From Minisyncoccota bacterium (GTDB lineage Bacteria; Patescibacteriota; Minisyncoccia; Phycocordibacterales; SBAW01): DNA of 64,000 nt. Positions 1-26,963 of this stretch are shown here, piece by piece (position 1 is the first letter of the stretch; every line of letters begins with the position of its first letter). The notes under the pieces are model-generated. The model did no database searches. It was not told the origin of the DNA and saw only the letters and a list, made by a program, of their open reading frames with translations. The stretch spans positions 662-64,661 of the forward strand of contig DATKGU010000003.1 of the NCBI GenBank assembly GCA_035510635.1, in the 5' to 3' direction. The translations under genes were made by a program, and so were the position numbers.

Positions 1-3
1 AAA

Positions 4-38
4 CCTGCAACCTTTTCCCGTAGGGGTTGCAGGTCAAA
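4..38 (-). terminator. Intrinsic terminator hairpin. On the minus strand: CCTGCAACC-loop-GGTTGCAGG followed by TTT at the window edge.
   Basis: 9-bp perfect stem at 6-38; minus-strand reading is followed by a T-run; lies downstream of minus-strand genes ending at 183. Confidence 0.35.
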
Positions 39-182
39 TTATGTCTCCGATCTGGATTTTCCTTACAAGTGGAGCAAAATCATATAAAACCCTTATATTG
101 CAACGTAAAACAGTTAAAAACCCATCGATTACCACCGTAAGCAACTTGTATTTACGCGCGCGTAGGGAGCGTGACGGCATGG

Positions 183-374
183 TCAGTCAAACAGACTAGG
201 CTGCTTTGTTGCACGACGCGGCCTGCGCTGCCGCTCTGCTCCCCAGATCAACTGGGCGAGCCGTAGGAGATAGTGCAGGGCGTCGCAACCCTCGCGGAAC
301 GAAAGGTCTCGGCCGGTCGTTTCTTTGATGATGCGCCGCAGCTCCGTGACGTCTTGCCTTGAGAAAATAGACAT
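183..374 (-). CDS. Hypothetical small protein (63 aa), basic C-terminus.
   Basis: ORF downstream of the HEPN-like gene on the same strand; no recognisable motif. Confidence 0.25.
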   Translation of the reverse strand: MSIFSRQDVTELRRIIKETTGRDLSFREGCDALHYLLRLAQLIWGAERQRRPRRATKQPSLFD

Positions 375-449
375 TCGTCCATTCCAACTCTGGCGACCGT
401 AAATGCAAGTCGCATTAGACGCGCGAGGTGCCCATGTAATTCTATTTCG

Positions 450-1394
450 TTAAAACCCTTCTGGCGGTTTAGTGTGTATAAAGCTATTCACACTAATTAC
501 CTTACCTTGCTCTTTTTCTAGAAAATACGTGAGCACTTCTTTGAGATCAGGCATCTTAGAGTGATCGATGGTTTTGATGAAGTTGGTAAACCCCGCTTTG
601 TTTTCGAAGAAGTTTCTCTGCGGTTGTACTACGTCATGGTCGATGAGTTCGCTCTTCAGAATTTCGTTATTAAAATATGAGACGACCGCCTTGTGTATTT
701 CACTCACGAAATCCCTCTCGTTTCTGGGTGCAGAATAATACTCGCCATGGGATAACTGATTACGAAGCCCTGCCGTGTTCTCAAAAATGTCACTAGCCAA
801 TTTGTCGCCGAGAATACTTTTATACAAATCTATAGCGTCGGGAAATGCCGTTTTATTCCTTTTGCGCCCAAGCGCTTCGATGGCTGCAAACATAAGGAGT
901 AATTTTGACGAATACCCAGTTGTGTTGGTAGCGTCGTTCCAGTAGAGATAAAAATCATTCGGTATCGTCGCCTCTGCATACAGCGTCCCAATGGCCTGCC
1001 CGTGCCTCTGAAGTAAAAGCAAACCCTGAGCATCTCGATCTCTGGTAAAGCGGAACAGTCCAGTGCTAGGGAATGAATCGGATCTAGTGATTAAAAAAGG
1101 CTCAAGGACGAATCGAACATAGCCTTGGCTCACCAGAGAAATTCTGGAAGTTATCTTCTCCAGTTTGTCGATGAAATGTGCGTAGGCCTTCTCCCAGTCC
1201 GCTGCGTTGATCTTCGCGCTTGCGAACCAAAAATCTCCGGTCGGGCCGGTCTGGATAGTGAAGTGCTCCTGTCGAAAAATAATTCCGTCCACGACAAAGC
1301 TCGGATCAGTTCCGTCTCCCATCGCGAGATGACTGATTGATCGGATTCGATGCTCGATGAAGTATTCGTTCATGATCCTAATACTCTGTTGCAC
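450..1394 (-). CDS. HEPN-domain (Rx4H) Abi-like protein, possibly Apea/Abi family. Likely true start MNEYF at 1373.
   Basis: C-terminal motif TAGLRNQLSHGEYY (R-x4-H followed by G) typical of HEPN RNase-like abortive-infection proteins. Paralogous motif context to ORF 4687-5799. Confidence 0.5.
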   Translation of the reverse strand: MQQSIRIMNEYFIEHRIRSISHLAMGDGTDPSFVVDGIIFRQEHFTIQTGPTGDFWFASAKINAADWEKAYAHFIDKLEKITSRISLVSQGYVRFVLEPFLITRSDSFPSTGLFRFTRDRDAQGLLLLQRHGQAIGTLYAEATIPNDFYLYWNDATNTTGYSSKLLLMFAAIEALGRKRNKTAFPDAIDLYKSILGDKLASDIFENTAGLRNQLSHGEYYSAPRNERDFVSEIHKAVVSYFNNEILKSELIDHDVVQPQRNFFENKAGFTNFIKTIDHSKMPDLKEVLTYFLEKEQGKVISVNSFIHTKPPEGF

Positions 1395-2193
1395 TACGCT
1401 GTTCTGCGTCCTTGAGAGCTTTCTCCACTTCTGAGTCGATTATCTTTTCGATTCGCTCAAAGGAATCGAGAGTTCGTAACTTAGCTCGTTCAGCCTTCGG
1501 CATAAAGAACTTAAAGCTCGGGCTCTCCATCTTCCACCACATGTAATAGCCTCGCCAATGTCGCTTTCGCAGACGATCGTTATAAATTTTTATTCGCGTG
1601 AGTGCCTTGATCGGCTCACTCATTTTCTTGTTGGCGTAGGCTTCAATTCCATCGGCGAAGGCTTCGAGATTTTGAGCGTAGGCGAGTCGTTGTGTCGGCG
1701 GGTCTGGGTTCGGGCCACTTTGCATCAAGGCGACAAGGGTTTCGTTCCCCCTGAGCATATCCTCAAAGTCTGGCTTTAGTTGCGAGAGAATACGATTCAT
1801 CTCTTTGATTCGGCTGTCAGAAAAGAGAGATTGATTGTGCAGGTAATAACTCCTAATTTTCAGGGTATGAATGTCGGGATCTCGATACACATCCAAAAAT
1901 GCGGGACAGTTGATACGGTCGAGCGCGAATGCGTTTGGACGCGTCTCCGCCCGTGTTTCTGCTGATAAGGCTCTGATTTTCTTCGCAAAATCTCTCAACT
2001 GAGCTCTGGTGAAATAAATGTCATTGAGTGCTGCGGTCGACCCGACTTCAATGCGTCGCATGGTTTCCCTTATCTCGGCGTTTTTCTCGAGCTTCGATTT
2101 TATGCTAAATCCAATGGCTGAGAGGATGACAGCCAAAAAAGGGCCGAGTCCAGCGCCTATGAGGGTCTGCCATTTGTTTAAAAAATCACCCAT
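1378..2193 (-). CDS. Membrane-anchored hypothetical protein (N-terminal TM helix, helical cytoplasmic domain). Overlaps the start of the HEPN gene by 17 nt, so probably an operon partner.
   Basis: Hydrophobic stretch LIGAGLGPFLAVILSAIGFSI at residues 10-30; 17-nt overlap with the downstream ORF. Confidence 0.5.
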   Translation of the reverse strand: MGDFLNKWQTLIGAGLGPFLAVILSAIGFSIKSKLEKNAEIRETMRRIEVGSTAALNDIYFTRAQLRDFAKKIRALSAETRAETRPNAFALDRINCPAFLDVYRDPDIHTLKIRSYYLHNQSLFSDSRIKEMNRILSQLKPDFEDMLRGNETLVALMQSGPNPDPPTQRLAYAQNLEAFADGIEAYANKKMSEPIKALTRIKIYNDRLRKRHWRGYYMWWKMESPSFKFFMPKAERAKLRTLDSFERIEKIIDSEVEKALKDAEQRSATEY

Positions 2194-2216
2194 GGGCTTA
2201 ATGGTAATATAGATGC

Positions 2217-3917
2217 ATGAGAGTTGACAGTAAAAAAGTACAACTCGCCCAGCCGTTTATCCCGGGTCTTTCTCCGATCCAATCAGCTGTAGATGAACTA
2301 GCTGCGGCGAACATCGATGACCGCGGCGCAATTTTCACCCGTCGGGAAGTGGTCGACTTTATACTCGATCTCGTCGGCTACACACCTGATAAATCGTTGC
2401 AGGACTTTCGACTGCTAGAGCCGTCATTCGGTCATGGCGATTTTCTTATTCCTGCGATTGAGAGGCTGATGATGTCGATCAAGCGGCAGAAATTACTGCC
2501 AACTGCGGATCTTTTGAAGGAGAGTATTCGTGGGGTGGAACTGCATGTAGCTTCATTCGGAAAAACTGTAAGCGAAGTTAGAGAGATTCTCATTAAAAAC
2601 GAACTTCGGGAGCGTGACGCGGACGAGGTACTAGACGCGTGGTTTGTCCGCGGGGACTTTCTCCTCTCGTTCTTCGGTCAGTCTTTTACTCATGTCGTTG
2701 GTAATCCACCGTATATACGACAGGAAATGGTACCGAACGCACTGATGGCCGAATATCGTCGTCGCTTTGATACCATCTACGATCGTGCTGACATTTACGT
2801 GCCGTTCATCGAGTATTCTCTCAGGCTCCTCGACGAAGGCGGTGTTCTCGGATTTATTTGTGCCGATCGTTGGATGAAAAATCGTTATGGCGGTCCGCTT
2901 CGCGACCTTGTGGCGGCAGAATTTCATCTTCGTGCATATGTCGACATGATCAACACGCACGCCTTTCATTCCGAAGTGATCGCGTATCCGGCAATAACTG
3001 TGATTGCGCGCGAGCCTTCCGGCCCGACACGTATCGCCAAACAACCGGAAATAGAAGCAGGGGCGCTTGAACAACTCTCGAAAGCCCTCAGACAAGATGC
3101 GCCGCATAGCAAAATCCTTCAGACGACCGTGCGGGAGGGCGGGCCATGGACGCTCGACGAATCTGATGCTCTCACGTTCATGCGTCGCCTTGAAGTTGAA
3201 TTCCCGACACTTGAGGAAGCTGGTTGCAAGGTAGGCATTGGTGTCGCAACTGGAGCCGATAGTGTCTTCATTGCTCCTTTCGCGGAGCTCGACGTAGAAG
3301 TTGATCGCAAATTGCCGCTCGCAATGACCAAGGACATACAGAGCGGGAAGGTCGAATGGCGCGGGTTTGGCGTGATAAATCCTTTTGGCGAAGACGGTAA
3401 GCTAGTCTCGCTTTCCGAGTATCCGAAACTGCGTGATTATCTGGAACAGCACAGCGAGACGATCAAGAGCCGTCACGTCTCCAAGAAAAACCCGAATGGC
3501 TGGTACCGGACAATCGATCGCATTTATCCTGAATTGGTGGCGAAACCGAAGCTCCTAATCCCTGACATTAAAGGTGACGCGCATATTGTGTACGAAGAGG
3601 GTAAATTCTATCCGCATCACAACCTCTACTACATAACTTCGGACAGCTGGGATCTGCAGGCACTCAGGTCCGTACTATCTTCCGGCATCGCACGTCTTTT
3701 CATCGAGGCATATTCAACGCGGATGCATGGGAACTGCCTTCGTTTCCAAGCTCAGTACTTGCGGCGCATACGCCTTCCGCAATGGTCTGATGTACCGAAA
3801 GACCTCCGTCGTCAGCTGCGTATTGCCGCTGAAAAGGACGATGTTGCTGCACGCGAAGATGCCGTCTCTCGTCTCTACTCCCTATCACCGTCTGAACGTG
3901 CTACGATTTATAGGTAA
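2217..3917 (+). CDS. Type II N6-adenine DNA methyltransferase (gamma-class, Eco57I/PaeR7I-like).
   Basis: Motif [11 protein letters not shown] (xPxxGxGxFL) and motif [10 protein letters not shown] (NPPY); 566 aa; stop TAA overlaps the ATG of the downstream ORF (TAATG). Confidence 0.85.
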
Positions 3918-4651
3918 TGACTGTAAATCTCGCGCAGTATGAAGATGGCGCTAAGCGCGCCGTAAAGCTCTTCTGGGGCAACCGAGCTACTGCTACTCAG
4001 CAGCAACTTGCTTCCGGAGCCGTCGATCATGGCACGCGCGGAGCGGTCACCGCCGGAAAGAACATGGATGGATTTGCTTCGCTCATGGCGGAGCTTGTTA
4101 AGGCTAATGGCCTCACAAATGCAACTGTTATCCACGGCGGCCGTCTCGTCACGCTCCCGGGCTTCTTCCGTCCAACCAAGCAATGGGATTTGCTCGTTCT
4201 CAATAGTGGGCATCTCGTCGCTGCGCTTGAATTCAAGTCACAAGTCGGATCATTCGGTAATAACTTCAACAACCGCACTGAGGAAGCGATCGGAACGGCG
4301 CATGATCTATGGATCGCATACCGTGAGGGGGCATTCGGCGAACAGCCAAAACCTTTCGTTGGATGGTTGATGCTCCTCGAAGATGCGCCGGGCTCTCGCT
4401 CGCCGGTGAATGACAAATCACCCCATTTTCCACTATTTTCTGACTTTAAGAACGCGTCCTATGCAGACCGCTACAACATCCTTTGTAAAAAGCTCGTGCA
4501 AGAAGGTCTCTATACAGCCGCCTCTGTTTTAATCTCGCCGCAAACCGCAAAAGACACCGGCGAATACGCAGACATGAGCGATCTCAGCAGTCTGCAAACC
4601 TTCGTGGCTACCTTTGCTGGGCACATTGCCGCTGAAGCAGCACGAAAGTAG
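3917..4651 (+). CDS. Putative Type II restriction endonuclease, cognate to the upstream methyltransferase. Size and gene order resemble XhoI/PaeR7I-family (CTCGAG) enzymes (hypothesis).
   Basis: 244-aa ORF translationally coupled (TAATG) to the methyltransferase. M-then-R order and sizes match the PaeR7I system (N6A methyltransferase ~530 aa, endonuclease ~246 aa). No direct catalytic motif could be verified by eye. Confidence 0.55.
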
Positions 4652-4686
4652 CCTCCATTTGAATAGGGAGGTATTGTAGTTCTGCC

Positions 4687-5799
4687 ATGGGTGGACATCT
4701 TTCAGTTACATATTTTCCGTTCCTCAACATGGACGGCGCGAAGGAGATCGACTTCGGGTTTCTCAAAATCTGGAACTTCTCAGCGATGAAGGATACCTAC
4801 GTCCCCGACCAAGCCACGCGCGAACACCTCGAAAAGATCTTCGCCATGCACCAGTCGTACGGGAAGCCGATTGAAGGCATCGGGGTCGTCTCGATCGGGG
4901 CGACAGACTTCAGGGCTTTTACGGAGGACGAGTATCGAAAAATCCGCGCCGCGCGGCTGATCCTTTTTCTCTCTTTTATCGACAGAAACAATACGGGGCA
5001 CGACCCAAACGCCGGCCACTCGATGGTAACGTCCGATACCTTCGATCTCTACACGCAGGGCTTCATCGTCGGCGACGATCACCTCTCAGACCGAGCGGGT
5101 GAGATTATTTCTTTCTTGAGAGGCGGCTTCGAGCTCGGCCGCACCGTGTTTGAAAGACCGGGCTTCGTGCCAGCGCATTTTATGTTCGCGCTCAGCAGCG
5201 ACCTGTTCAGTAGCCTGCGGGACATGCAAGCAAAAAGGCCTCGCGTGTTCGAAAAAGTCATTACCGCGACCGAGCTTTTTTTCGAGAGCTACTACAACGG
5301 TCCGCAGCTCAGCAAGAACGCTCGCGTGCTGTTGCAAGCGAGTGCATTCGAGGTATTGCTGGACCTGCCGGAAAGGGATCAACGCAAGCACTTCAAAGAA
5401 GCAATCGGCACGCTAACGAACCTACCGGGCGAGAAGACCTATACGCACTTTTCCGAGAGAACTGGGAGACTCAAAGTCAGGGAGAAAATTACGATCAAGC
5501 AGATCTGGGCGGACTTGTTTTACACTCTCCGGAACCACATCATCCACGGCAATACTCCAAAGAGCAGCGACTTTGTATTCAAGGGTGCACGGCACACGGA
5601 CATCACCGTCCAGTTTTTCGTTCTCTGTGTCCGGAAGCTGATCGAAAAAAAACTCCCGGGGCACCCGTGCGATCACCTCATCGAGTGGGGTTCGTGGGAG
5701 GACGCCTCACAAACACCGCCGACGCGTGTGAACGGATTTGTATATCGCGTTGAAATAATGAAAAAAATTGCGCGCGCCCTAAAAAAGAAGAGCCCTTAA
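4687..5799 (+). CDS. Second HEPN-like (Rx4H) protein, divergent paralog of ORF 450-1394.
   Basis: Motif FYTLRNHIIHGNT (R-x4-H-G) about 60 aa from the C-terminus; upstream helix SAFEVLLDL parallels AAIEALG in the other protein; SD GGGAGG upstream. Confidence 0.5.
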   Translation: MGGHLSVTYFPFLNMDGAKEIDFGFLKIWNFSAMKDTYVPDQATREHLEKIFAMHQSYGKPIEGIGVVSIGATDFRAFTEDEYRKIRAARLILFLSFIDRNNTGHDPNAGHSMVTSDTFDLYTQGFIVGDDHLSDRAGEIISFLRGGFELGRTVFERPGFVPAHFMFALSSDLFSSLRDMQAKRPRVFEKVITATELFFESYYNGPQLSKNARVLLQASAFEVLLDLPERDQRKHFKEAIGTLTNLPGEKTYTHFSERTGRLKVREKITIKQIWADLFYTLRNHIIHGNTPKSSDFVFKGARHTDITVQFFVLCVRKLIEKKLPGHPCDHLIEWGSWEDASQTPPTRVNGFVYRVEIMKKIARALKKKSP

Positions 5800-5803
5800 C
5801 GGC

Positions 5804-7009
5804 TTATTGCGATCCGTATTGCGGAATATCGCCGTACTGCGGGTTGCCCGTCTCTATCGCATCCTCGGCGGTGCGTAAGTCGGAAGGAAGGACGACGCAG
5901 CCTATGTATTCCTTGTTCGGATTGCTCTCCGCCATCGTGCTATCCACTTCGCGCAGGAACGCGCACATGTGTACGTCGTTGCCGATGGCGGAGAGGCCGG
6001 ACCAGTTGATCTGACTGAAGGTGCCGAGATCCATGTCGTACGACATGATCATGCTGGTTTTTGAGTTGCCGTACTGATCGGTCGTCTGCCCGTAGTAGCG
6101 GATGAGCACGTCGGTGAAGTCCGAGTCGACGGGAAACACATGCTGGAAGATAGCCGTGCTCAAGAGGCCGGTGTCGGTGATGATCGAATTATCATCAAGC
6201 TCTTCGCTGAGGTTCAGATCGACGGTCACGTTATCCGTGCCGGGCGGCACGGCTTGGTCGCTGTCGATCTCCACGTCCCCGAGAGTAGCCTGCGAATTGA
6301 GCTGTGCTTGTACTGCCGCTTCCGCTTTCTGCTGCGGAGATAGCGGCGCGGATGACGAAGGGGTCTCCGTGCACTGCGCGTTCGTGTCGGCACCGGTGCC
6401 GTGCGCTGTCTGCAGCGTCTCGCAGAGACTCAGAGGATCGGCTTGAGCGGGATCAGTCCAGTCCGTGCCGGCGTATGTTTTCTGATCTATCGTGTATGCG
6501 ATGAGCGGAGCGTTCTGCGAGGCGGTGGTCGTCGCAAAGTAGGTCACGGTCAACGATGACACGGGATACCCCTGTCCGAAGACGCTAGAAAACAAAGGAA
6601 CGGTATACGGGCCGGTGAGTCCCGCAACGACCGACTCGTCGACGCCGAGAAAGTTCGCCGGCACACCGAGGTTCACGCTGACCGCGCCTGCGTTATTGAT
6701 CGTCGTGCCCTCATACGTGGCAGCGCCTTTGAGCTTGCTTGCGACGACAGATTGCACGGCGCTCTCGATGGCCGATGTCTGCGCCGATGAGAGAACAGGA
6801 GTTGCGGGAACGATTGCTGCGGCTTGAGTTACTGTCGAAGGTGACGAAAGAGATGTGAGACCAAGTATGACAAAAGACGCGCCGGCGATACCACCGAAAA
6901 CATACCTCACGTGCTTACTCGACGACATTCGCACGAAGCGGGGCTTGATACTGCCGACGACGAGGGCGACAAGCGACGCAAGAAATATAACAACGAGGAG
7001 AGTATCCAT
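5804..7009 (-). CDS. Secreted or membrane-anchored Ser/Thr/Ala-rich low-complexity protein (putative surface protein).
   Basis: N-terminal hydrophobic helices (LLVVIFLASLVALVVG; GGIAGASFVILGLTSL); long S/T/A-rich region; Cys-containing C-terminal domain. Confidence 0.55.
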   Translation of the reverse strand: MDTLLVVIFLASLVALVVGSIKPRFVRMSSSKHVRYVFGGIAGASFVILGLTSLSSPSTVTQAAAIVPATPVLSSAQTSAIESAVQSVVASKLKGAATYEGTTINNAGAVSVNLGVPANFLGVDESVVAGLTGPYTVPLFSSVFGQGYPVSSLTVTYFATTTASQNAPLIAYTIDQKTYAGTDWTDPAQADPLSLCETLQTAHGTGADTNAQCTETPSSSAPLSPQQKAEAAVQAQLNSQATLGDVEIDSDQAVPPGTDNVTVDLNLSEELDDNSIITDTGLLSTAIFQHVFPVDSDFTDVLIRYYGQTTDQYGNSKTSMIMSYDMDLGTFSQINWSGLSAIGNDVHMCAFLREVDSTMAESNPNKEYIGCVVLPSDLRTAEDAIETGNPQYGDIPQYGSQ

Positions 7010-7296
7010 GATTTTCCGCGCTTAGTTGATAAGCAACTGGCAGCGGCGATTTTCTAGACACAGAAAACCCGCCACGGGTTCCGGCTTGCGCCGGACGTAC
7101 AGGTTTCCCCATACGGCGGATCACGCAACCCCATGACGGGTTTTCTATGCGTGATCCGACCAGAGGCCATGCCACCGTTGCCGATGGTTTAGGCCCTGCC
7201 CTCTCGGGCTATTCAGTTGTAAGCAAATGTTAGCATCGGCGGCGGCTCCTGACCACCCGCTTTGCTAGCGGCGGCGGTAGAGCCTAGAATGAAGGA

Positions 7297-8019
7297 ATGA
7301 CGGCGGGAGATGAGACGGAAATACAGAGAACCAGATTGATACTGGGTCTATTGAAGCAGCATCTCAATGAAGAAAGTCGTGTCGCATTTTTGTCACTCGA
7401 TACTTTGCGGAAAGTCAAAGACGCGCCCCTCGGTAGTACGACTGCCATAGAGAAAACGCTCGAATGGATTGTCGATGCGTCGAACGGAGAAATAACTTTC
7501 GACGTCGTAGAAACACCGACAATGTGGCAGCGAGAAGTTGATACTGCGCATCCTGATCCTGAGCCGCCTGTTTTCGGACCACTCGTTAAATCCGGCTTCA
7601 GGGTATGGGTATCGAATCCCAAGAAAATAGACGAATACTTCAATGCGATCCTCAAAGAGAAAAATCTATCGGTCAAAAAACCGCGCTCAAAGAAAAAGCC
7701 GTTTTTCAGCGAGATCGTGATCGGCAAGTTACATGCATGCGCTGACGGTCTAATCAGGTTTGGGGGAAATGTCGTCGACATGCGACCTCAGCTCGCGACG
7801 CTCTGTTGGCTTTTTATGGAGCATGAGGGAGCCCTCGTCACGATTGATGATATTAAAGAGCGCATTATCGAGGCGAGCAAACGAGCCGGCACCTCAAATA
7901 CGACGATAGCAAAGTATGTCAGCGAACTTCACCGACCCCTCCAAGATGTGTATGGGGGTGAGGTAATTTTCAACGAGAAGGATATTGGCTGGCGTTTTGA
8001 GCCAGAACGAACAGCCTAA
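7297..8019 (+). CDS. Transcriptional regulator with C-terminal OmpR/PhoB-type winged-helix DNA-binding domain (no receiver domain).
   Basis: C-terminus ...LATLCWLFMEHEGALVTIDDIKERI...YVSELHRPLQDVYGGEVIFNEKDIGWRFE matches the trans_reg_C pattern (L..ELL..L..N.G.VVSR..L...VWG...YV..LR.KL.....I.TVRG.GYRF). Confidence 0.5.
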   Translation: MTAGDETEIQRTRLILGLLKQHLNEESRVAFLSLDTLRKVKDAPLGSTTAIEKTLEWIVDASNGEITFDVVETPTMWQREVDTAHPDPEPPVFGPLVKSGFRVWVSNPKKIDEYFNAILKEKNLSVKKPRSKKKPFFSEIVIGKLHACADGLIRFGGNVVDMRPQLATLCWLFMEHEGALVTIDDIKERIIEASKRAGTSNTTIAKYVSELHRPLQDVYGGEVIFNEKDIGWRFEPERTA

Positions 8020-8045
8020 TTCAATATTGAATAACGAATGAATAA

Positions 8046-8070
8046 GCCCCCGTAGGATGCGGGGGCTTTT
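8046..8070 (+). terminator. Rho-independent terminator (GCCCCCG-TAGGATG-CGGGGGC-TTTT).
   Basis: 7-bp GC stem plus T-run immediately after the stop of ORF 7297-8019. Confidence 0.6.
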
Positions 8071-8280
8071 ATGTTGCACAAGAAAGCCCTGCATGAACTA
8101 AAAGAAATCATGGCACGCGACTACGGCGTGCGGATTTCCGATGACCAAGCCGAGGAGCTCGGTGTCTCTCTGCTACGCCTTACGCGCATAGGACTTGCTG
8201 CTCTCGCCCGAGCGAGCGAACAAAAAACGTTCGTTCAGGCGAGGGATGGAAATTCCCTCGGAGCAAAGACCAGCACGTAA
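8071..8280 (+). CDS. Hypothetical small helical protein (69 aa).
   Basis: ORF starting in the terminator T-tract; no motif; low support. Confidence 0.25.
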   Translation: MLHKKALHELKEIMARDYGVRISDDQAEELGVSLLRLTRIGLAALARASEQKTFVQARDGNSLGAKTST

Positions 8281-8685
8281 GTCGCGTGCCTCTTCAAGCC
8301 CCGGGCGCACCCGTGTGGGGCTTGTAAAAATAAAACAGACACGGGCTGGCTTCGTGATCCCGCGATAAAGGGATGGCCGAGTATCGGCACACGAGCCACC
8401 ACTGGTTGCGGTGTAGCTAACCGTTCCTAACGCAACTACGTACGCCGCCGAATGCGCTTGCGCTACTCGGCCGGACAATTGGAACCAAGTCGCTCTCCGA
8501 GAGAAAACGGATCAAGAGCACGGCGAACCCCCTAAGGCAAATGCCGTGGGGGTAAGGGGGCTCTGGCAACCGGGCCAAGTATCAGCATTTATAAGGCTTT
8601 TCACTTCATCACAAATTATGGACTGGATATAAATCGTGTTCTCGGTAGTGTCTGTATAGCAACATTAGTTACTTAAAAAACAACC

Positions 8686-10437
8686 ATGAAAACAACAGGA
8701 AAATTGAATTACGGAGGATACTCGCGCAAGTCGAGCGAGGCGGAAGATAAGCAAGCGCTCTCGATCGACTCGCAGATTGATGAACTCAAGAAGCTCGCCG
8801 CAAGCAAGAAAATCGTACTACGAGATGAAGACATAATGCAGGAAGCGCATTCAGCAAAAAGTGCCTTCGCCCGCCCCGTATTCGAATTGCTTATCAAGCA
8901 CATCGAGCAACGCAAGGTGCAAGGCTTACTTGTGTGGCATCCAAACCGGCTCTCACGCAACGCCGTCGACGCGGCGCGCCTTATCCAACTGATGGACGAA
9001 GGGAAACTCGTCGAGATAGTTACGCCGAGCCAGACGTTCCATGACACGCCGCAAGACAAGTTCTTCTTCACGCTCATGACCAGCCAAGCAAAAATGGAGA
9101 ACGATGCGAAAGGCATCGATGTAAAGCGCGGACTCCGAAAAAAGAACGAGATGGGGTACCCAGCCGGCGTCGCCAAACTGGGGTACGTCAATGACTACGG
9201 CGAAAAGGGATATCGGAAGCTCGAGGCGGACCCTGAGCGCTTCGAACTCGTAAAACAGCTGCTACTCATGTTTCTTTCGGGAAAGCACTCTGCACGAGCA
9301 CTCCTGAAGCACTCAACCAATGTCATGCGACTGCATACGATCCAGCGCAAAAAAGAAGGCGGCCGACCTATCCAACTCTCTCGTATTTATACGATGCTGC
9401 AAGACCCATTCTATGCAGGCTTCTTCTGGGCCAAAGACGAAAACAGAGAAACCAAGCGATATGAGGTCAACGAGGCTGTGCCGCGAATGATTACGGAAGC
9501 CCAGTACTGGGAGATACAGACCATGCTCGGCCGGAACGGTATCCCGCGCCCGACCCTTAACAAGGATTCGTTTCCGTACGCTGGTAGGACGCGATGCGGA
9601 AACTGTAACGGTACGGTGATTGCGGAACACAAGCACCAATTGATCTGCCCAAACTGCCGGAATAAATTCGCATACAAAAACAAAGAGGTGTGTCCGCGTT
9701 GCGACACCCGAATAGATCGCATGGAAAACGCGACATACCTCCACTACATCTACTACCACTGCAATAAAGGCAAAAACCCGACCTGCGAGGAGCCGAGCAT
9801 CCAGCAGTCGGGTATAGACGAATCCATGGCGAAGCGCATCGAACAGGAGCTCGAAACGTCGAGGGCCCTTAGTGAATGGTGCATCCAGCACCTTGAGATT
9901 ATCGCGGGCGAAGAGCGCAAAAATGAGTACGAGCGCAAAGAAGGCCTAAAGCGCGAGCTGGCGCAAAAAGAAAAAGAGAGCGAAGAACTCATTCGCATGC
10001 GCATGAAAGGCCTTATCGAGGACGATGACGAGTTCCTGCGATACAAGGAAGGGCTGGAGAGCGACAAGCGCCGAATAAAGCAAGTTCTAGACGACATGGG
10101 CGGAACGGACACCGCGAGTCTCGAGGAGGCAAAGAAAGCCTTCGCCGTGATCGTCGGATTGAGCGCAGTGTTCAAAAGCGGCACATTCGAGGAAAAACAG
10201 GAGGCTTTATCGGTGCTCGGTTCGAACCTAACTTTAAAGGAGAAAAACCTCAACGTTATCAACAAGAAAGTGTTCTTATTGATTTCAAAAGGCCTACTTG
10301 AGGCGAGAGCCAAAAACCCTACGTTCGAACCTAGAAATTATGAGGCAGATAAAGACGAAACGGAGGCATTCGCCTCCGTTCGTCCAACCTTGCTCCGCGA
10401 CCAGGACTCGAACCTGGAACCAACTCCTTACACGTAA
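8686..10437 (+). CDS. Large serine recombinase/integrase (resolvase-type catalytic domain, recombinase domain and zinc-ribbon). The annotated 3' end reads through into the tRNA-Asn 3' exon.
   Basis: N-terminus GYSRKSSEAEDKQALSID...VWHPNRLSRN (catalytic Ser, resolvase fold); Cys clusters CGNCNG...CPNC and CPRC...C (zinc ribbon); coiled-coil C-terminus; 583 aa. Confidence 0.85.
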   Translation: MKTTGKLNYGGYSRKSSEAEDKQALSIDSQIDELKKLAASKKIVLRDEDIMQEAHSAKSAFARPVFELLIKHIEQRKVQGLLVWHPNRLSRNAVDAARLIQLMDEGKLVEIVTPSQTFHDTPQDKFFFTLMTSQAKMENDAKGIDVKRGLRKKNEMGYPAGVAKLGYVNDYGEKGYRKLEADPERFELVKQLLLMFLSGKHSARALLKHSTNVMRLHTIQRKKEGGRPIQLSRIYTMLQDPFYAGFFWAKDENRETKRYEVNEAVPRMITEAQYWEIQTMLGRNGIPRPTLNKDSFPYAGRTRCGNCNGTVIAEHKHQLICPNCRNKFAYKNKEVCPRCDTRIDRMENATYLHYIYYHCNKGKNPTCEEPSIQQSGIDESMAKRIEQELETSRALSEWCIQHLEIIAGEERKNEYERKEGLKRELAQKEKESEELIRMRMKGLIEDDDEFLRYKEGLESDKRRIKQVLDDMGGTDTASLEEAKKAFAVIVGLSAVFKSGTFEEKQEALSVLGSNLTLKEKNLNVINKKVFLLISKGLLEARAKNPTFEPRNYEADKDETEAFASVRPTLLRDQDSNLEPTPYT

Positions 10438-10699
10438 TCCCACATTGCTGGGGGCGTGGACTATATCATCATCCCAGTTACTAAACTGTCGGATGCGAGG
10501 CGCTTCGTGCCGCAAAACAACTTTGCGGAACTACTCCCTTGCGGGATAGTCTCTACACCTTTTCCAAAACTTTTGGAACTTGGCTCGGGATTGCCCTTAT
10601 TGCTAAGGGTTTCCCCGAATTCACCTCGTTTTGCAATCCAGATTACGCTGGAAAGCTGCCTTTTGACAGGGAGCTGCTCTACCATTGAGCTATCGCGGA
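10393..10699 (-). tRNA. tRNA-Asn(GUU) interrupted by a group I intron in the anticodon loop (exons 10666-10699 and 10393-10430; mature length 72 nt, CCA not encoded).
   Basis: 5' exon UCCGCGA-UA-GCUC-AAUGGUA-GAGC-A-GCUCC-CUGU. 3' exon UAA-GGAGU-UGGUU-CCAGG-UUCGAGU-CCUGG-UCGCGGA-G. Acceptor stems complementary, U1-A72, G73, loop CUGUUAA identical to E. coli tRNA-Asn. An alternative splice reading would give Thr(UGU). Confidence 0.65.
10431..10665 (-). ncRNA. Group I self-splicing intron, IC3-like (Azoarcus/tRNA-type), 235 nt, no ORF.
   Basis: P1: exon CUGU^C pairs with IGS GGCAG (U.G at the splice site). R-like GGUGUAGAGACUA and S-like GAUAUAGUCC elements form P7 (GACUA/UAGUC). Strong similarity to the Azoarcus intron core (AAUUCGGGGAAACC...CCGAGCCAAGUUCC...AAGGUGUAGAGACUA). 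Terminal G before the 3' exon. Confidence 0.7.
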
Positions 10700-16981: not shown

Positions 16982-17995
16982 ATGGCTTTTTTTACTCCAA
17001 AACTCGGCATCGACCTCGGCACTGCCAACACGCTGGTGTTTGTACCCGGCAAAGGGGTTATCCTCAACGAGCCTTCGGTGGTGGCAATCTCGGAGATAGA
17101 CAAGCGCATTTTGGCGGTTGGTTTTGCCGCTAAAGAGATGATCGGCCGCACACCGGGCGAGATTGTGGCGTACCGGCCGCTCCGCGACGGCGTGATTGCC
17201 GACTACCGCGTGACGCAAGCAATGCTGCGCTATTTTATACAAAAGGCGCTCGGGCGTTTCCAACTTTTTAAACCAGAGGTGATGATTAGCGTGCCAACCG
17301 GCGTCACTTCTACCGAACGGCGCGCGGTTGTGGAGGCCGCGATACGCGCGGGCGCTAAAAGCGCATATGTGGTTAAGGAGTCGGTGCTCGCGGCCATTGG
17401 CGCGGGCATCCCGATACAAGAGGCGCGTGGCAACATGGTGGTAGACCTCGGCGGCGGCACGTGCGATGTGGCGGTGATTAGCCTCGGCGGTATTGTCGCT
17501 TCGACAAGTGTTAAATGCGCGGGCGACAAGCTCGACCACGCGATTGCCGATTATATTAAAAAAACGTACAACCTCGGCATCGGCGAGAAGACCGCCGAGG
17601 ATGTAAAAATCGCCATCGGCTCGGCGGTGCCGATGGAGGAGGAGCTCGTGGTGATGGTACGCGGCCGCGATTTTATATCGGGCCTGCCGCGCACGGTGGA
17701 GATAAAAACCAACGACATCGTCAAAGCAATCGGCAAAGAACTCCGCGAAATTATCAAAGCAATACGCGATGTGTTGCAAGAGACGCCGCCGGAGCTCGCA
17801 TCCGACATTATCGATAGAGGCATCATCATGACCGGAGGCACTTCGATGTTGCGCAATTTTCCCGAGCTGGTACTGCGCCGCACGGGCGTTAAAGCCGAGG
17901 TTGCCAACGACCCGCTCTATTGCGTGGCGCGCGGCACAGGCATTGCACTCAACCATCTCGACACCTACAAAAAAGCAATCATCACAAAGAGGTAA
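16982..17995 (+). CDS. mreB: Rod shape-determining protein MreB (paralog 1, standalone).
   Basis: Actin-fold motifs GIDLGTANT, DLGGGTCDVAV, IMTGGTS. Confidence 0.9.
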   Translation: MAFFTPKLGIDLGTANTLVFVPGKGVILNEPSVVAISEIDKRILAVGFAAKEMIGRTPGEIVAYRPLRDGVIADYRVTQAMLRYFIQKALGRFQLFKPEVMISVPTGVTSTERRAVVEAAIRAGAKSAYVVKESVLAAIGAGIPIQEARGNMVVDLGGGTCDVAVISLGGIVASTSVKCAGDKLDHAIADYIKKTYNLGIGEKTAEDVKIAIGSAVPMEEELVVMVRGRDFISGLPRTVEIKTNDIVKAIGKELREIIKAIRDVLQETPPELASDIIDRGIIMTGGTSMLRNFPELVLRRTGVKAEVANDPLYCVARGTGIALNHLDTYKKAIITKR

Positions 17996-25907: not shown

Positions 25908-26963
25908 ATGTTTAAAAATTTTCAAAACAGATTTTTGCCGCTTATATCCAACGATGTAGGCATCGACCTTGGCACGGCCAACACGCTGGTATATCTGCGC
26001 GGCAAAGGCATTGTCGTAACCGAGCCGTCGGTGGTGGCGGTCAATCAAAAAACCGGCCAGGTGGTAGCGGTGGGCGCCGAGGCAAAGGCGATGCTCGGCC
26101 GCACGCCAGGGCACTTAGTGGCGGTGCGTCCGCTTATCGACGGCGTTGTGTCCGACTTTGAAGCAACCGAGGAGATGCTCGCCTATCTCATTAACCGCGC
26201 ACAAGGCGTGTCGCGCAAAATGCTGGGCCCTCGTGCGGTCATTGGCGTACCGTCCGGCATTACCAACGTGGAGATACGCGCCGTTAAAGATGCGGCGCAA
26301 AACGCGGGCGCGCGCGAGGTACATATAGTAGAGGAGCCGATGGCCGCGGCGCTCGGCATACGCTTGCCGGTGCGCGAAGCGATGGGCAGCATGATTGTCG
26401 ACATCGGCGGCGGCACGGTTGATATTGCGGTCATCAGTTTGGGAGGTATTGTCCGCTCTAAAAATTTGCGCGTCGCAGGCGACAAGCTCAATCAAGACAT
26501 CATTTCTTATGTACGCTCTGAGTTTAAAATTTTAATAGGGGAGAAGACTGCCGAAAACGTAAAGATGGCGATAGGCACCGCCATCGAGGGCGGCGAGCAC
26601 ATGGAGGCCATCATACGCGGCCGCGACCTCATCACAGGCTTGCCGCGCGAGATTATCATTACCGACTCGGACATTCGCGAGGCAATCTCGCAATCGATAG
26701 ATACGCTGGTTGAGTCGGTGCGCGAGGTGCTTGAGACAACGCCGCCCGAGATTCTCTCCGATATCATGCACTCAGGCATTGTGCTCGTGGGCGGCGGCGC
26801 ATTGCTCAAAGGGCTCGACAGCTTGCTCGCGCAATGGCTCAAAGTGCCCGTATTGGTAGCCGACGACCCGCTCACGGCCGTGGCGCGCGGCACCGGAGTT
26901 ATTTTGGAAAATTTAGAGGCGCATCGCGACGTATTTCTCGAACATGACGACGATATCTCCTAA
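25908..26963 (+). CDS. mreB: Rod shape-determining protein MreB (paralog 2, in the mreBCD-mrdA operon).
   Basis: GIDLGTANT, DIGGGTVDIAV, VLVGGGA motifs; followed by mreC. Confidence 0.9.
   Translation: MFKNFQNRFLPLISNDVGIDLGTANTLVYLRGKGIVVTEPSVVAVNQKTGQVVAVGAEAKAMLGRTPGHLVAVRPLIDGVVSDFEATEEMLAYLINRAQGVSRKMLGPRAVIGVPSGITNVEIRAVKDAAQNAGAREVHIVEEPMAAALGIRLPVREAMGSMIVDIGGGTVDIAVISLGGIVRSKNLRVAGDKLNQDIISYVRSEFKILIGEKTAENVKMAIGTAIEGGEHMEAIIRGRDLITGLPREIIITDSDIREAISQSIDTLVESVREVLETTPPEILSDIMHSGIVLVGGGALLKGLDSLLAQWLKVPVLVADDPLTAVARGTGVILENLEAHRDVFLEHDDDIS

Follow-up and report, generated by a model that had tools for sequence, protein, structure and literature searches.

A large serine recombinase gene ending in a split tRNA-Asn gene in a Minisyncoccota bacterium, and the tRNA junctions of its relatives

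Introduction

Characterized serine integrases such as SPbeta SprA, the Listeria A118/LI integrase, TP901-1, Bxb1 and phiC31 combine a resolvase domain with a recombinase domain and a zinc ribbon, act on short att sites that have few bases in common and are encoded at an end of their element. Their targets are protein-coding genes. In the case of the LI integrase, the outer half-site motif of attP, which is the motif of the zinc-ribbon domain, is reportedly displaced 5 bp outward relative to attB. Here, we describe a gene for a large serine recombinase (LSR) of this general make-up, with a putative Cys-rich zinc ribbon, that runs into the 3' end of a tRNA-Asn gene. It lies in a stretch of 64 000 nucleotides from a Minisyncoccota bacterium (contig DATKGU010000003.1), which is referred to as the window. 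Positions 10392–10398 of the window are with high probability attR, the right junction of an island integrated at the 3' end of tRNA-Asn, with attP located in the last codons of the LSR gene itself. The window is one instance of a coherent, little-documented variant of the serine integrases, the members of which target tRNA 3' ends rather than protein-coding genes.

The tyrosine-integrase islands of the Islander type (PMC4383910) resemble this locus in that the 3' end of a tRNA gene is the target, the tRNA is preserved and the integrase gene adjoins the junction. They differ in that the integrase of the window is a serine recombinase, from an unrelated family, and in that the common sequence is a 7-bp core and not a restored tRNA fragment of tens of base pairs with a direct repeat at the far end. 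According to the same paper (PMC4383910) serine integrases are not known to use tRNA genes, and tRNA targets go unmentioned in the large LSR survey of Durrant et al. (PMC10083194). Mageeney et al. (2020; PMC7192596) placed 14 of 297 serine-integrase (S-Int) elements in t(m)RNA genes, stating that 'experimental proof will be required', and Hackl et al. (bioRxiv 10.1101/2020.12.28.424599) reported an LSR in 27 of 937 tycheposon and cryptic elements, with most Prochlorococcus islands adjoining tRNA genes. These are likewise LSR-encoding small cargo or defence islands at tRNA genes, with no phage or conjugation modules. The reports comprise few cases and give no att architecture, whereas in the family of the window the junction is fixed and the core and half-sites are defined.

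Integration at a tRNA gene by a serine recombinase is also a feature of the phiRSM group, the target of which is tRNA-Ser; unlike the LSR of the window, these are small resolvase-like 'S-core' proteins of filamentous phages and lack the recombinase and zinc-ribbon domains. An attP inside coding sequence, such that integration alters a protein, is found in SSV1 and in the mycobacteriophages with integration-dependent immunity. Both use tyrosine integrases; the int gene of SSV1 is split into two large parts and the repressor of the mycobacteriophages is truncated. The likeness is an analogy, as the recombinase family differs, and in the system of the window the exchange would be confined to the tail at the very C-terminus of a serine integrase. 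What would set the family apart from the characterized serine integrases, besides its targets, is an attP that overlaps the last codons of the integrase gene, integration rewriting the C-terminus and the stop codon, and a P' arm that mimics the tRNA T-arm. The phiRSM group of small serine recombinases is cited in PMC7192596. In the literature, which was covered incompletely, we came across no LSR family that carries attP in the 3' end of its own gene, no case of T-arm mimicry and no report of such islands from Patescibacteria.

Results and discussion

The recombinase and the split tRNA-Asn gene

The LSR is encoded by an open reading frame (ORF) of 583 residues (8686–10437, + strand). An initial annotation, made from the sequence alone, had recognized it by the motifs YSRKSS, RLSRN and CGNCNG/CPNC/CPRC; all are present (residues 12–17, 88–92 and 304–339, respectively) and Pfam supports the identification, with a resolvase-type catalytic domain (PF00239, E = 7e-22, residues 11–157) followed by a recombinase domain (PF07508, 24.2 bits against a cut-off of 21.1, residues 184–283). 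The serine nucleophile Ser16 sits within YSRKSS. In the homologue alignment Arg14, Ser16, Arg88 and Arg91 are invariant, and the cysteine pairs 304/307, 321/324, 336/339 and 359/367 are conserved. The Pfam zinc-ribbon matches of the window LSR are under the cut-off; PF13408 is recorded for the homologues P0013, P0071 and P0077. PHROG 95 ('integrase') matches at E = 2e-58. The nearest solved structures in a PDB search are SPbeta SprA/YokA and the TP901-1 integrase, and the identity to characterized integrases is very low (E of about 1e-8). An exact-protein look-up gave no record of the window LSR itself, and a protein search gave 924 homologues at E <= 1e-10, chiefly from Paceibacterota, Parcubacteria and other Patescibacteria. 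A viral collection contained just 12 distant matches to the family; these elements are therefore not typical phages.

Downstream, the LSR frame reads antisense through the entire 3' exon of a tRNA-Asn gene that is interrupted in its anticodon loop by a group I intron (Table 1). ARAGORN called no tRNA at this junction in the unspliced window because the gene is split by the intron; splicing 10699–10666 to 10430–10393 gives a canonical tRNA-Asn(GUU), and the limits of the 3' exon in the initial annotation are exact. Rfam matches the group I intron family RF00028 at 10438–10679 on the − strand (71.7 bits against a gathering score of 50). The hallmarks of group I splicing are also present: the 5' exon ends in CUGU, the 3' exon begins with UAAGG and the terminal nucleotide of the intron is G. 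Two close relatives, L001 and L003 (77% nucleotide identity), have the identical tRNA-Asn arrangement without the intron, their alignment to the window continuing through 10430 and restarting at 10663, which identifies them as intron-less alleles. An intron at the same position of tRNA-Asn occurs in the patescibacterial loci L007, L008, L009, L014, L020, L030 and L042, with lengths from ~220 to ~570 nt. An alternative splice junction that would yield tRNA-Asp was rejected, as it needs an intron ending in U and not G and a 5' exon ending in C and not U. A contig from the independent Logan assembly of SRR8676595 (L098) with identical right-flank genes begins at window position ~10674, inside the 5' exon of tRNA-Asn; a break of this kind is what differences between strains in the intron or island content of the site would lead one to expect.

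Codon Leu570 starts at 10393, the complement of the discriminator position of the tRNA, and the 13 codons Leu570–Tyr582 overlap the exon. The stop codon (TAA, 10435–10437) had been placed in the 3' exon but is actually found within the last 7 nt of the intron, to which the third base of Tyr582 and Thr583 also belong. Of the ~15 codons initially described as antisense to the tRNA, the 13 thus stand, and the last one and a bit, together with the stop, are intronic.

Conservation of the recombinase ends at the junction

The C-termini of the homologues are conserved up to ...FEP(x20)SVRPTLLR, ending at Arg571 (10398), and then diverge into three classes of tail, which were counted among the 120 best homologues; the last 12 residues of the window protein are therefore not conserved protein. 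A stop within 1–3 residues is found in 66 of the 120. Read-through is seen in at least 18, the tail being for example DQDSNLEPTPYT or GWDSNPRPID, where 'DSN' corresponds to the T-loop GGTTCGAATCC translated in antisense; in the window, 10399–10430 is antisense acceptor, T-arm and anticodon-arm sequence. The third class, with 14 members, continues as 'x-x-L-[DN]-x-[VF]-R-T...' and is referred to as the 'VRT' class. Conserved protein sequence running through the overlap was not met with in the homologues, the tails of which vary with the tRNA or stop at once. L080, whose LSR gene belongs to the 'VRT' class and has 77.6% DNA identity, aligns to window positions 8622–10398 and diverges directly after CTCCGC. 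In L008/L084 (Adlerbacteria) the read-through tail and the intron position are the same as in the window, and the right-flank genes are conserved (a hibernation factor, a formyltransferase and others).

A scan of the species-representative genomes (GTDB) listed 599 pattern matches, among which there are at least 432 confirmed loci of the LSR family; 79 loci were taken for junction analysis and the end of the ORF is readable in ~72. ARAGORN places a tRNA 3' end on the opposite strand at the same LSR codon in 36 of the 79. Most of these tRNAs are Asn(GTT), and Gln, Ser, Glu, Arg, Lys and Met also occur. A further seven loci have an intron-bearing tRNA-Asn, three are cut by contig ends and one has a T-arm remnant, giving a total of ~48 tRNA junctions in the ~72 readable loci; most of the rest (~23) show the 'VRT', attP-like continuation. 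The overlap between recombinase and tRNA is not due to chance: the same junction is found at the same codon in ~48 related loci. Immediately ahead of the junction, the encoded residues vary together with the acceptor end of the tRNA (LR with Asn, LG with Gln, RR with Ser, SS with Lys and Arg). Every integrated copy takes its stop from the antisense tRNA, often as the TAG of GGTAG in the T-stem, or, in the window, from the intron, and the length of the integrated tail (1 to ~20 residues) is set by the tRNA sequence.

Attachment sites

The core at attR is placed at codons 570–571 of 583 (Table 1), and the ORFs of attP-form loci run 7–35 codons beyond it. The P' half-site of these loci, TGGAYGANGTTMGAAC, is read as L-D-x-V-R-T and appears to be an imitation of the T-arm that carries a 5-bp insert and so lies further from the core: TCGAAC is found at +16 from the discriminator in the tRNAs, and T[A/C]GAAC at +21 in the P' arms, where it is preceded by GGAY as in the T-stem. 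The 5-bp displacement agrees with that reported for attP of the LI integrase. The GTTCG of the P half-site (10378–10382) is inverted relative to the GAAC of the P' arm. The DNA of the P' arm is conserved in at least 20 attP-form loci, and it is because of the DNA motif GTTMGAAC that the 'VRT' peptide is conserved. In one subfamily (P0081, P0097, P0104 and L076) a protein-like extension of ~30 residues, RT.DW..EY.FPS..L....LL, follows past the P' arm.

Far-end sites were sought with a small hidden Markov model of the 'VRT' tails and a matching DNA pattern. In the relatives they were found on the predicted strand and consist of a host arm, then the 7-bp core of the tRNA junction and then TGGAYGANGTTMGAAC; five attL/attR pairs are listed in Table 1. 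Since the pairs carry TGGAYGANGTTMGAAC at the far end, the 'VRT' class is the unrecombined attP form. The attL sites have 0–3 mismatches over ~18 nt plus the core, and what they share with the tRNA is the core only. The informative core mismatches are at position 6 in L082 and at position 4 in L023, and the comparison suggests that strand exchange takes place in the left part of the core, at the very 3' end of the tRNA. No direct repeat of either the tRNA 3' exon or the junction was found in the window or in the 6 kb upstream flanks of 37 relatives, which gave chance 9–13-mers only. Recognition of the universal T-loop would account for the family's moves from one tRNA species to another, the core co-evolving with the acceptor end. 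The proposal that the overlap pins the integration junction is borne out by the end of the homology to L080 after 10398 and by the matching attL/attR pairs of the relatives.

Table 1. Features of the window and attL/attR pairs of relatives (positions are those of the window)
Feature	Position	Strand	Remarks
LSR, conserved coding part, residues 1–571	8686–10398	+	Catalytic Ser16, recombinase domain, putative Cys-rich zinc ribbon 304–339
7-bp core GCTCCGC (probable attR)	10392–10398		Complement of tRNA-Asn positions 68–74; homology to L080 ends there
Putative P half-site (element side) of attR	10368–10391		Within the F-A-S-V-R-P-T-L codons; read from the sequence and compared with attP of L080
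Putative B' half-site (host side)	10399–10421		3' strand of the tRNA acceptor and T-arm; TCGAAC at 10408–10413
Junction-encoded tail DQDSNLEPTPYT and stop	10399–10437	+	Antisense of tRNA 10399–10430 and of the last 7 nt of the intron, 10431–10437
tRNA-Asn(GUU), 3' exon	10393–10430	−	ARAGORN on the spliced sequence; intron-less alleles L001, L003
Group I intron, 235 nt	10431–10665	−	Between anticodon-loop nucleotides 35 and 36; RF00028
tRNA-Asn, 5' exon	10666–10699	−	ARAGORN on the spliced sequence; intron-less alleles
Hairpin and T-rich tail on the tRNA strand	10344–10381	−	Stem 10360–10367/10372–10379, extendable to 10358–10381; inside the LSR coding sequence
Eco57I/TaqI-type methyltransferase	2217–3917	+	Pfam; assigned to the island by analogy with L082
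XhoI-type restriction endonuclease, complete gene	3917–4651	+	PF04555, E = 2e-87; assigned to the island by analogy with L082
LOOT RNA (RF03000, orphan small RNA motif)	7080–7195	−	Rfam, 84.5 bits
240-residue protein	7297–8019	+	Weak winged-helix (Trans_reg_C) signal; island gene
69-residue ORF directly upstream of the LSR	8071–8280	+	tblastx matches in L001, L002, L003, L008, L080, L081
Structured noncoding stretch, ~325 nt	8288–8612	+	Between the 69-residue ORF and the LSR start; conserved in L001, L002, L003
attL/attR pair of L016			Core GCTCCGC; island 6.4 kb
attL/attR pair of L023			Core GCTCTGC at attL and GCTCCGC at attR; island 7.1 kb
attL/attR pair of L060			Core GCTGGGG; island 5.0 kb; tRNA-Gln
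attL/attR pair of L082			Core TGCTCCG; island 9.4 kb; LSR 81% identical to that of the window; same methylase, XhoI endonuclease, LOOT RNA and 69-residue ORF
attL/attR pair of L084			Core GCTCCGC; island 11.6 kb; type I restriction–modification, DUF2130, LOOT; same intron-bearing tRNA-Asn and right-flank synteny

A hairpin at the end of the recombinase coding sequence

A terminator scan gave a terminator-like match on the tRNA strand within the ETEAFASV codons of the LSR, with a stem of 8–10 bp located 13–33 nt from the core. Covariation was evaluated in 17 relatives that align without gaps, including two attP forms, against 500 shuffles. Pairing cells make up 74.5% (61.7 ± 2.3% in the shuffles), 19 cells are compensatory (7.0 in the shuffles) and the covariation score is 0.324 compared with 0.137 ± 0.030; none of the 500 shuffles scored as high, and slid registers are clearly worse. 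The paired stem strands are ACGGAGGC/GCCTCCGT in the window, ACGGACGC/GCGTCCGT in L001 and ACCGACAC/GTGTCGGT in L003, and part of the compensatory changes are synonymous third-position pairs. Loci that have no hairpin also have no T-tract. RNAalifold found no common structure over all 37 tRNA-downstream regions because the register of the hairpin differs between clades, and it is for this reason that the test was restricted to the clade that aligns without gaps. The hairpin is probably a terminator supplied by the island to a tRNA whose own trailer was displaced.

Proposed course of integration and its alternatives

We propose that this large and mainly patescibacterial LSR family has its attP within the last codons of its own gene. 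The codons for ...SVRPTLL would form the P half-site, the core GCTCCGC would copy the 3' end of the target tRNA and the P' half-site TGGAYGANGTTMGAAC would mimic the T-arm 5 bp further out. The attP junction would then read CCAACCTTGCTCCGC followed by ATG..GTTmGAAC, and the empty attB would be a B arm followed by GCTCCGCGACCAGGACTCGAACC. Recombination with the 3' end of tRNA-Asn would swap out everything past the core, and the LSR frame would then continue into the antisense tRNA until the first stop. In the window the 3' exon offers no stop, and the TAA of the anticodon loop, which is the stop in comparable intron-less alleles such as L011, is broken up by the intron; as a consequence, the protein gains 12 unconserved residues and its stop is reached 7 nt into the intron. 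The tRNA would keep essentially its own sequence and lose its 3' trailer, the hairpin and T-tract probably replacing the terminator. The initial annotation offered, as a signature of integration, that the tRNA 3' half supplies the C-terminus and stop of the recombinase. The antisense end of the tRNA does supply the last residues; the element, however, would contribute at most the last ~6 nt of the tRNA and not a tRNA half, and the stop is intronic.

That the LSR and the tRNA are simply convergent neighbours which overlap by chance, with no recombination at that point, would be in keeping with the compactness of patescibacterial genomes and with the failure to find the attL of the window or its empty site. 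This is nevertheless extremely improbable, as seven tRNA species adjoin the same LSR codon in the relatives, the L080 homology breaks exactly at the core and five relatives have attL/attR pairs. A classical tRNA island, in which a long copy of the tRNA 3' half (the whole 3' exon) replaces that of the host and the displaced fragment is left at the far end, is also very improbable. It is the mode of the tyrosine-integrase tRNA islands (PMC4383910) and the one to which the initial wording points, but the attP forms (L080, L081 and others) hold the 7-nt core and a T-arm imitation and no tRNA half, the attL sites of the relatives carry the core only and a second copy of the 3' exon is absent from the window.

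The change of the C-terminus might itself be functional, the excised element encoding a full-length LSR and the integrated element a tail-swapped one, as a switch of activity, directionality or stability, the last after the manner of mycobacteriophage integration-dependent immunity. The ~30-residue extension of P0081, P0097, P0104 and L076, which is always removed by integration, speaks for this. Within the clade of the window, the attP-form tails are short and unconserved (that of L080 ends 7 residues after LLR, and P0022, P0113 and L081 differ), the integrated tails are dictated by the tRNA and the 'VRT' peptide is accounted for by its DNA motif, and we regard such a switch as unlikely. We find it easier to imagine, though still doubtful, that the junction is historical and the window island is decayed and immobile, its attL having been lost or rearranged. 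The absence of a recognizable attL from the 8.7 kb to the left and the segment 4652–7018, which is not common to the otherwise similar L003/L082 island, would fit decay; against it, the LSR ORF is uninterrupted and has its full set of catalytic residues, and the attL of L082 lies ~1.8 kb left of its methylase, which would put the equivalent site of the window at or beyond its first bases.

Several observations weigh against the preferred reading, in which 10392–10398 is the attR of an island with attP in the LSR gene. Recombination at tRNA-Asn is deduced from sequence. No attL was found in window positions 1–8686 with the peptide model, with the P' arm at up to four mismatches or with the 27-nt core plus P' at up to eight. 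The initial annotation had proposed a comparison with the empty site, and no empty-site allele was found in the relatives or in the metagenome collection searched, where the reconstructed attB sites of L084 and of L016 had no matches; exact-protein look-ups with the right-flank genes likewise gave no empty site and only short contigs that break inside the tRNA. Short attP-form contigs showed no signs of circular assembly. The hairpin could have another role, as the counts of G–U pairs show no strand preference. Finally, attP-form LSR genes with the conserved P' motif occur with no tRNA near in multi-megabase contigs of Bacteroidota/Rhodothermales metagenome-assembled genomes (L025, L026, L029, L041 and L073; LSR 3' ends at locus positions ~7650–7770). 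An intact attP in these chromosomes may stem from tandem copies, from misassembly or from the enzyme being used differently, and is unexplained if the attP form is purely the excised state.

Content and left end of the island

From attR, the island would reach at least ~8.2 kb to the left, with the restriction–modification cargo placed by analogy with L082. The methyltransferase/XhoI pair is 77% identical in DNA to that of L003/L082, where it lies between attL and the LSR. Searching for the left end, we rejected a candidate attL at 6918 (+ strand), which has four mismatches and no core and is unproven, ~0.6 such matches being expected by chance; a 9-mer match at 504 and sequences in 1–450 were discarded on inspection by eye. 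A tblastn comparison of attP-type tails with the window gave noise only, and nothing in the window corresponds to the left flanks of L082 and L084. Cargo in related islands includes type I restriction–modification systems, GmrSD nearby, an Ltp lipoprotein and Schlafen/AlbA-like and Ymh-like proteins, and no phage or conjugation genes were seen in the islands. The related islands are small mobile defence islands, and the window element would be another.

Of the 26 sources scanned, 12 have LOOT RNA at a distance of 1.3–3.5 kb upstream of the LSR gene (the window, L002, L003, L005, L006, L008, L010, L012, L014, L015, L031 and L080), and all 12 are in the clade with an LSR identity of at least ~41% to that of the window. 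LOOT RNA seems to belong to the regular make-up of such tRNA-targeting islands. The 69-residue ORF has no family match in protein family searches, PHROG included; as a guess, it is a candidate regulator or recombination directionality factor. Between it and the LSR, 8288–8612 can be folded into a multi-helix structure with 85 pairs, 17 of them with compensatory changes in an alignment of four sequences only. The folding z-score is −2.8 on the + strand and −1.3 on the − strand, and no Rfam family matches at E <= 1. The stretch is a candidate LSR leader or new structured noncoding RNA of the island.

Taken to its full extent, the interpretation would be of an undescribed, widespread class of tRNA-recognizing serine-integrase islands with a T-arm-mimicking attP, the C-terminus being rewritten on integration and excision. 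In at least one subfamily the loss of the ~30-residue conserved tail would act as a self-contained switch of directionality or expression, and LOOT and the 325-nt leader would be functional parts. In this complete form we consider it rather unlikely.

Although tRNA genes are held to be targets of tyrosine integrases, the LSR family described here, which is large and centred in Patescibacteria, makes systematic use of tRNA 3' ends and moves between at least seven tRNA species. It offers many natural sets of attP, attB, attL and attR in which the universal T-arm would serve as the host half-site and a copy of it, displaced by 5 bp, as the element half-site, making the family a ready-made system for studying how serine integrases tell attP from attB and how their specificities evolve. 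For annotation, the C-termini and stops of such integrases are dictated by the neighbouring tRNA, and split tRNAs hide the junction from standard tools. The orphan LOOT RNA and the mobile defence islands of an under-studied phylum also gain a genomic context.

Elsewhere in the window, a repeat scan found paralogous, diverged stretches at 17006–17940 and 25959–26896, ~8.95 kb apart and with segments of 70–83% identity, which, judging from L084, are probably derived from duplicated actin-like (MreB-type) genes.

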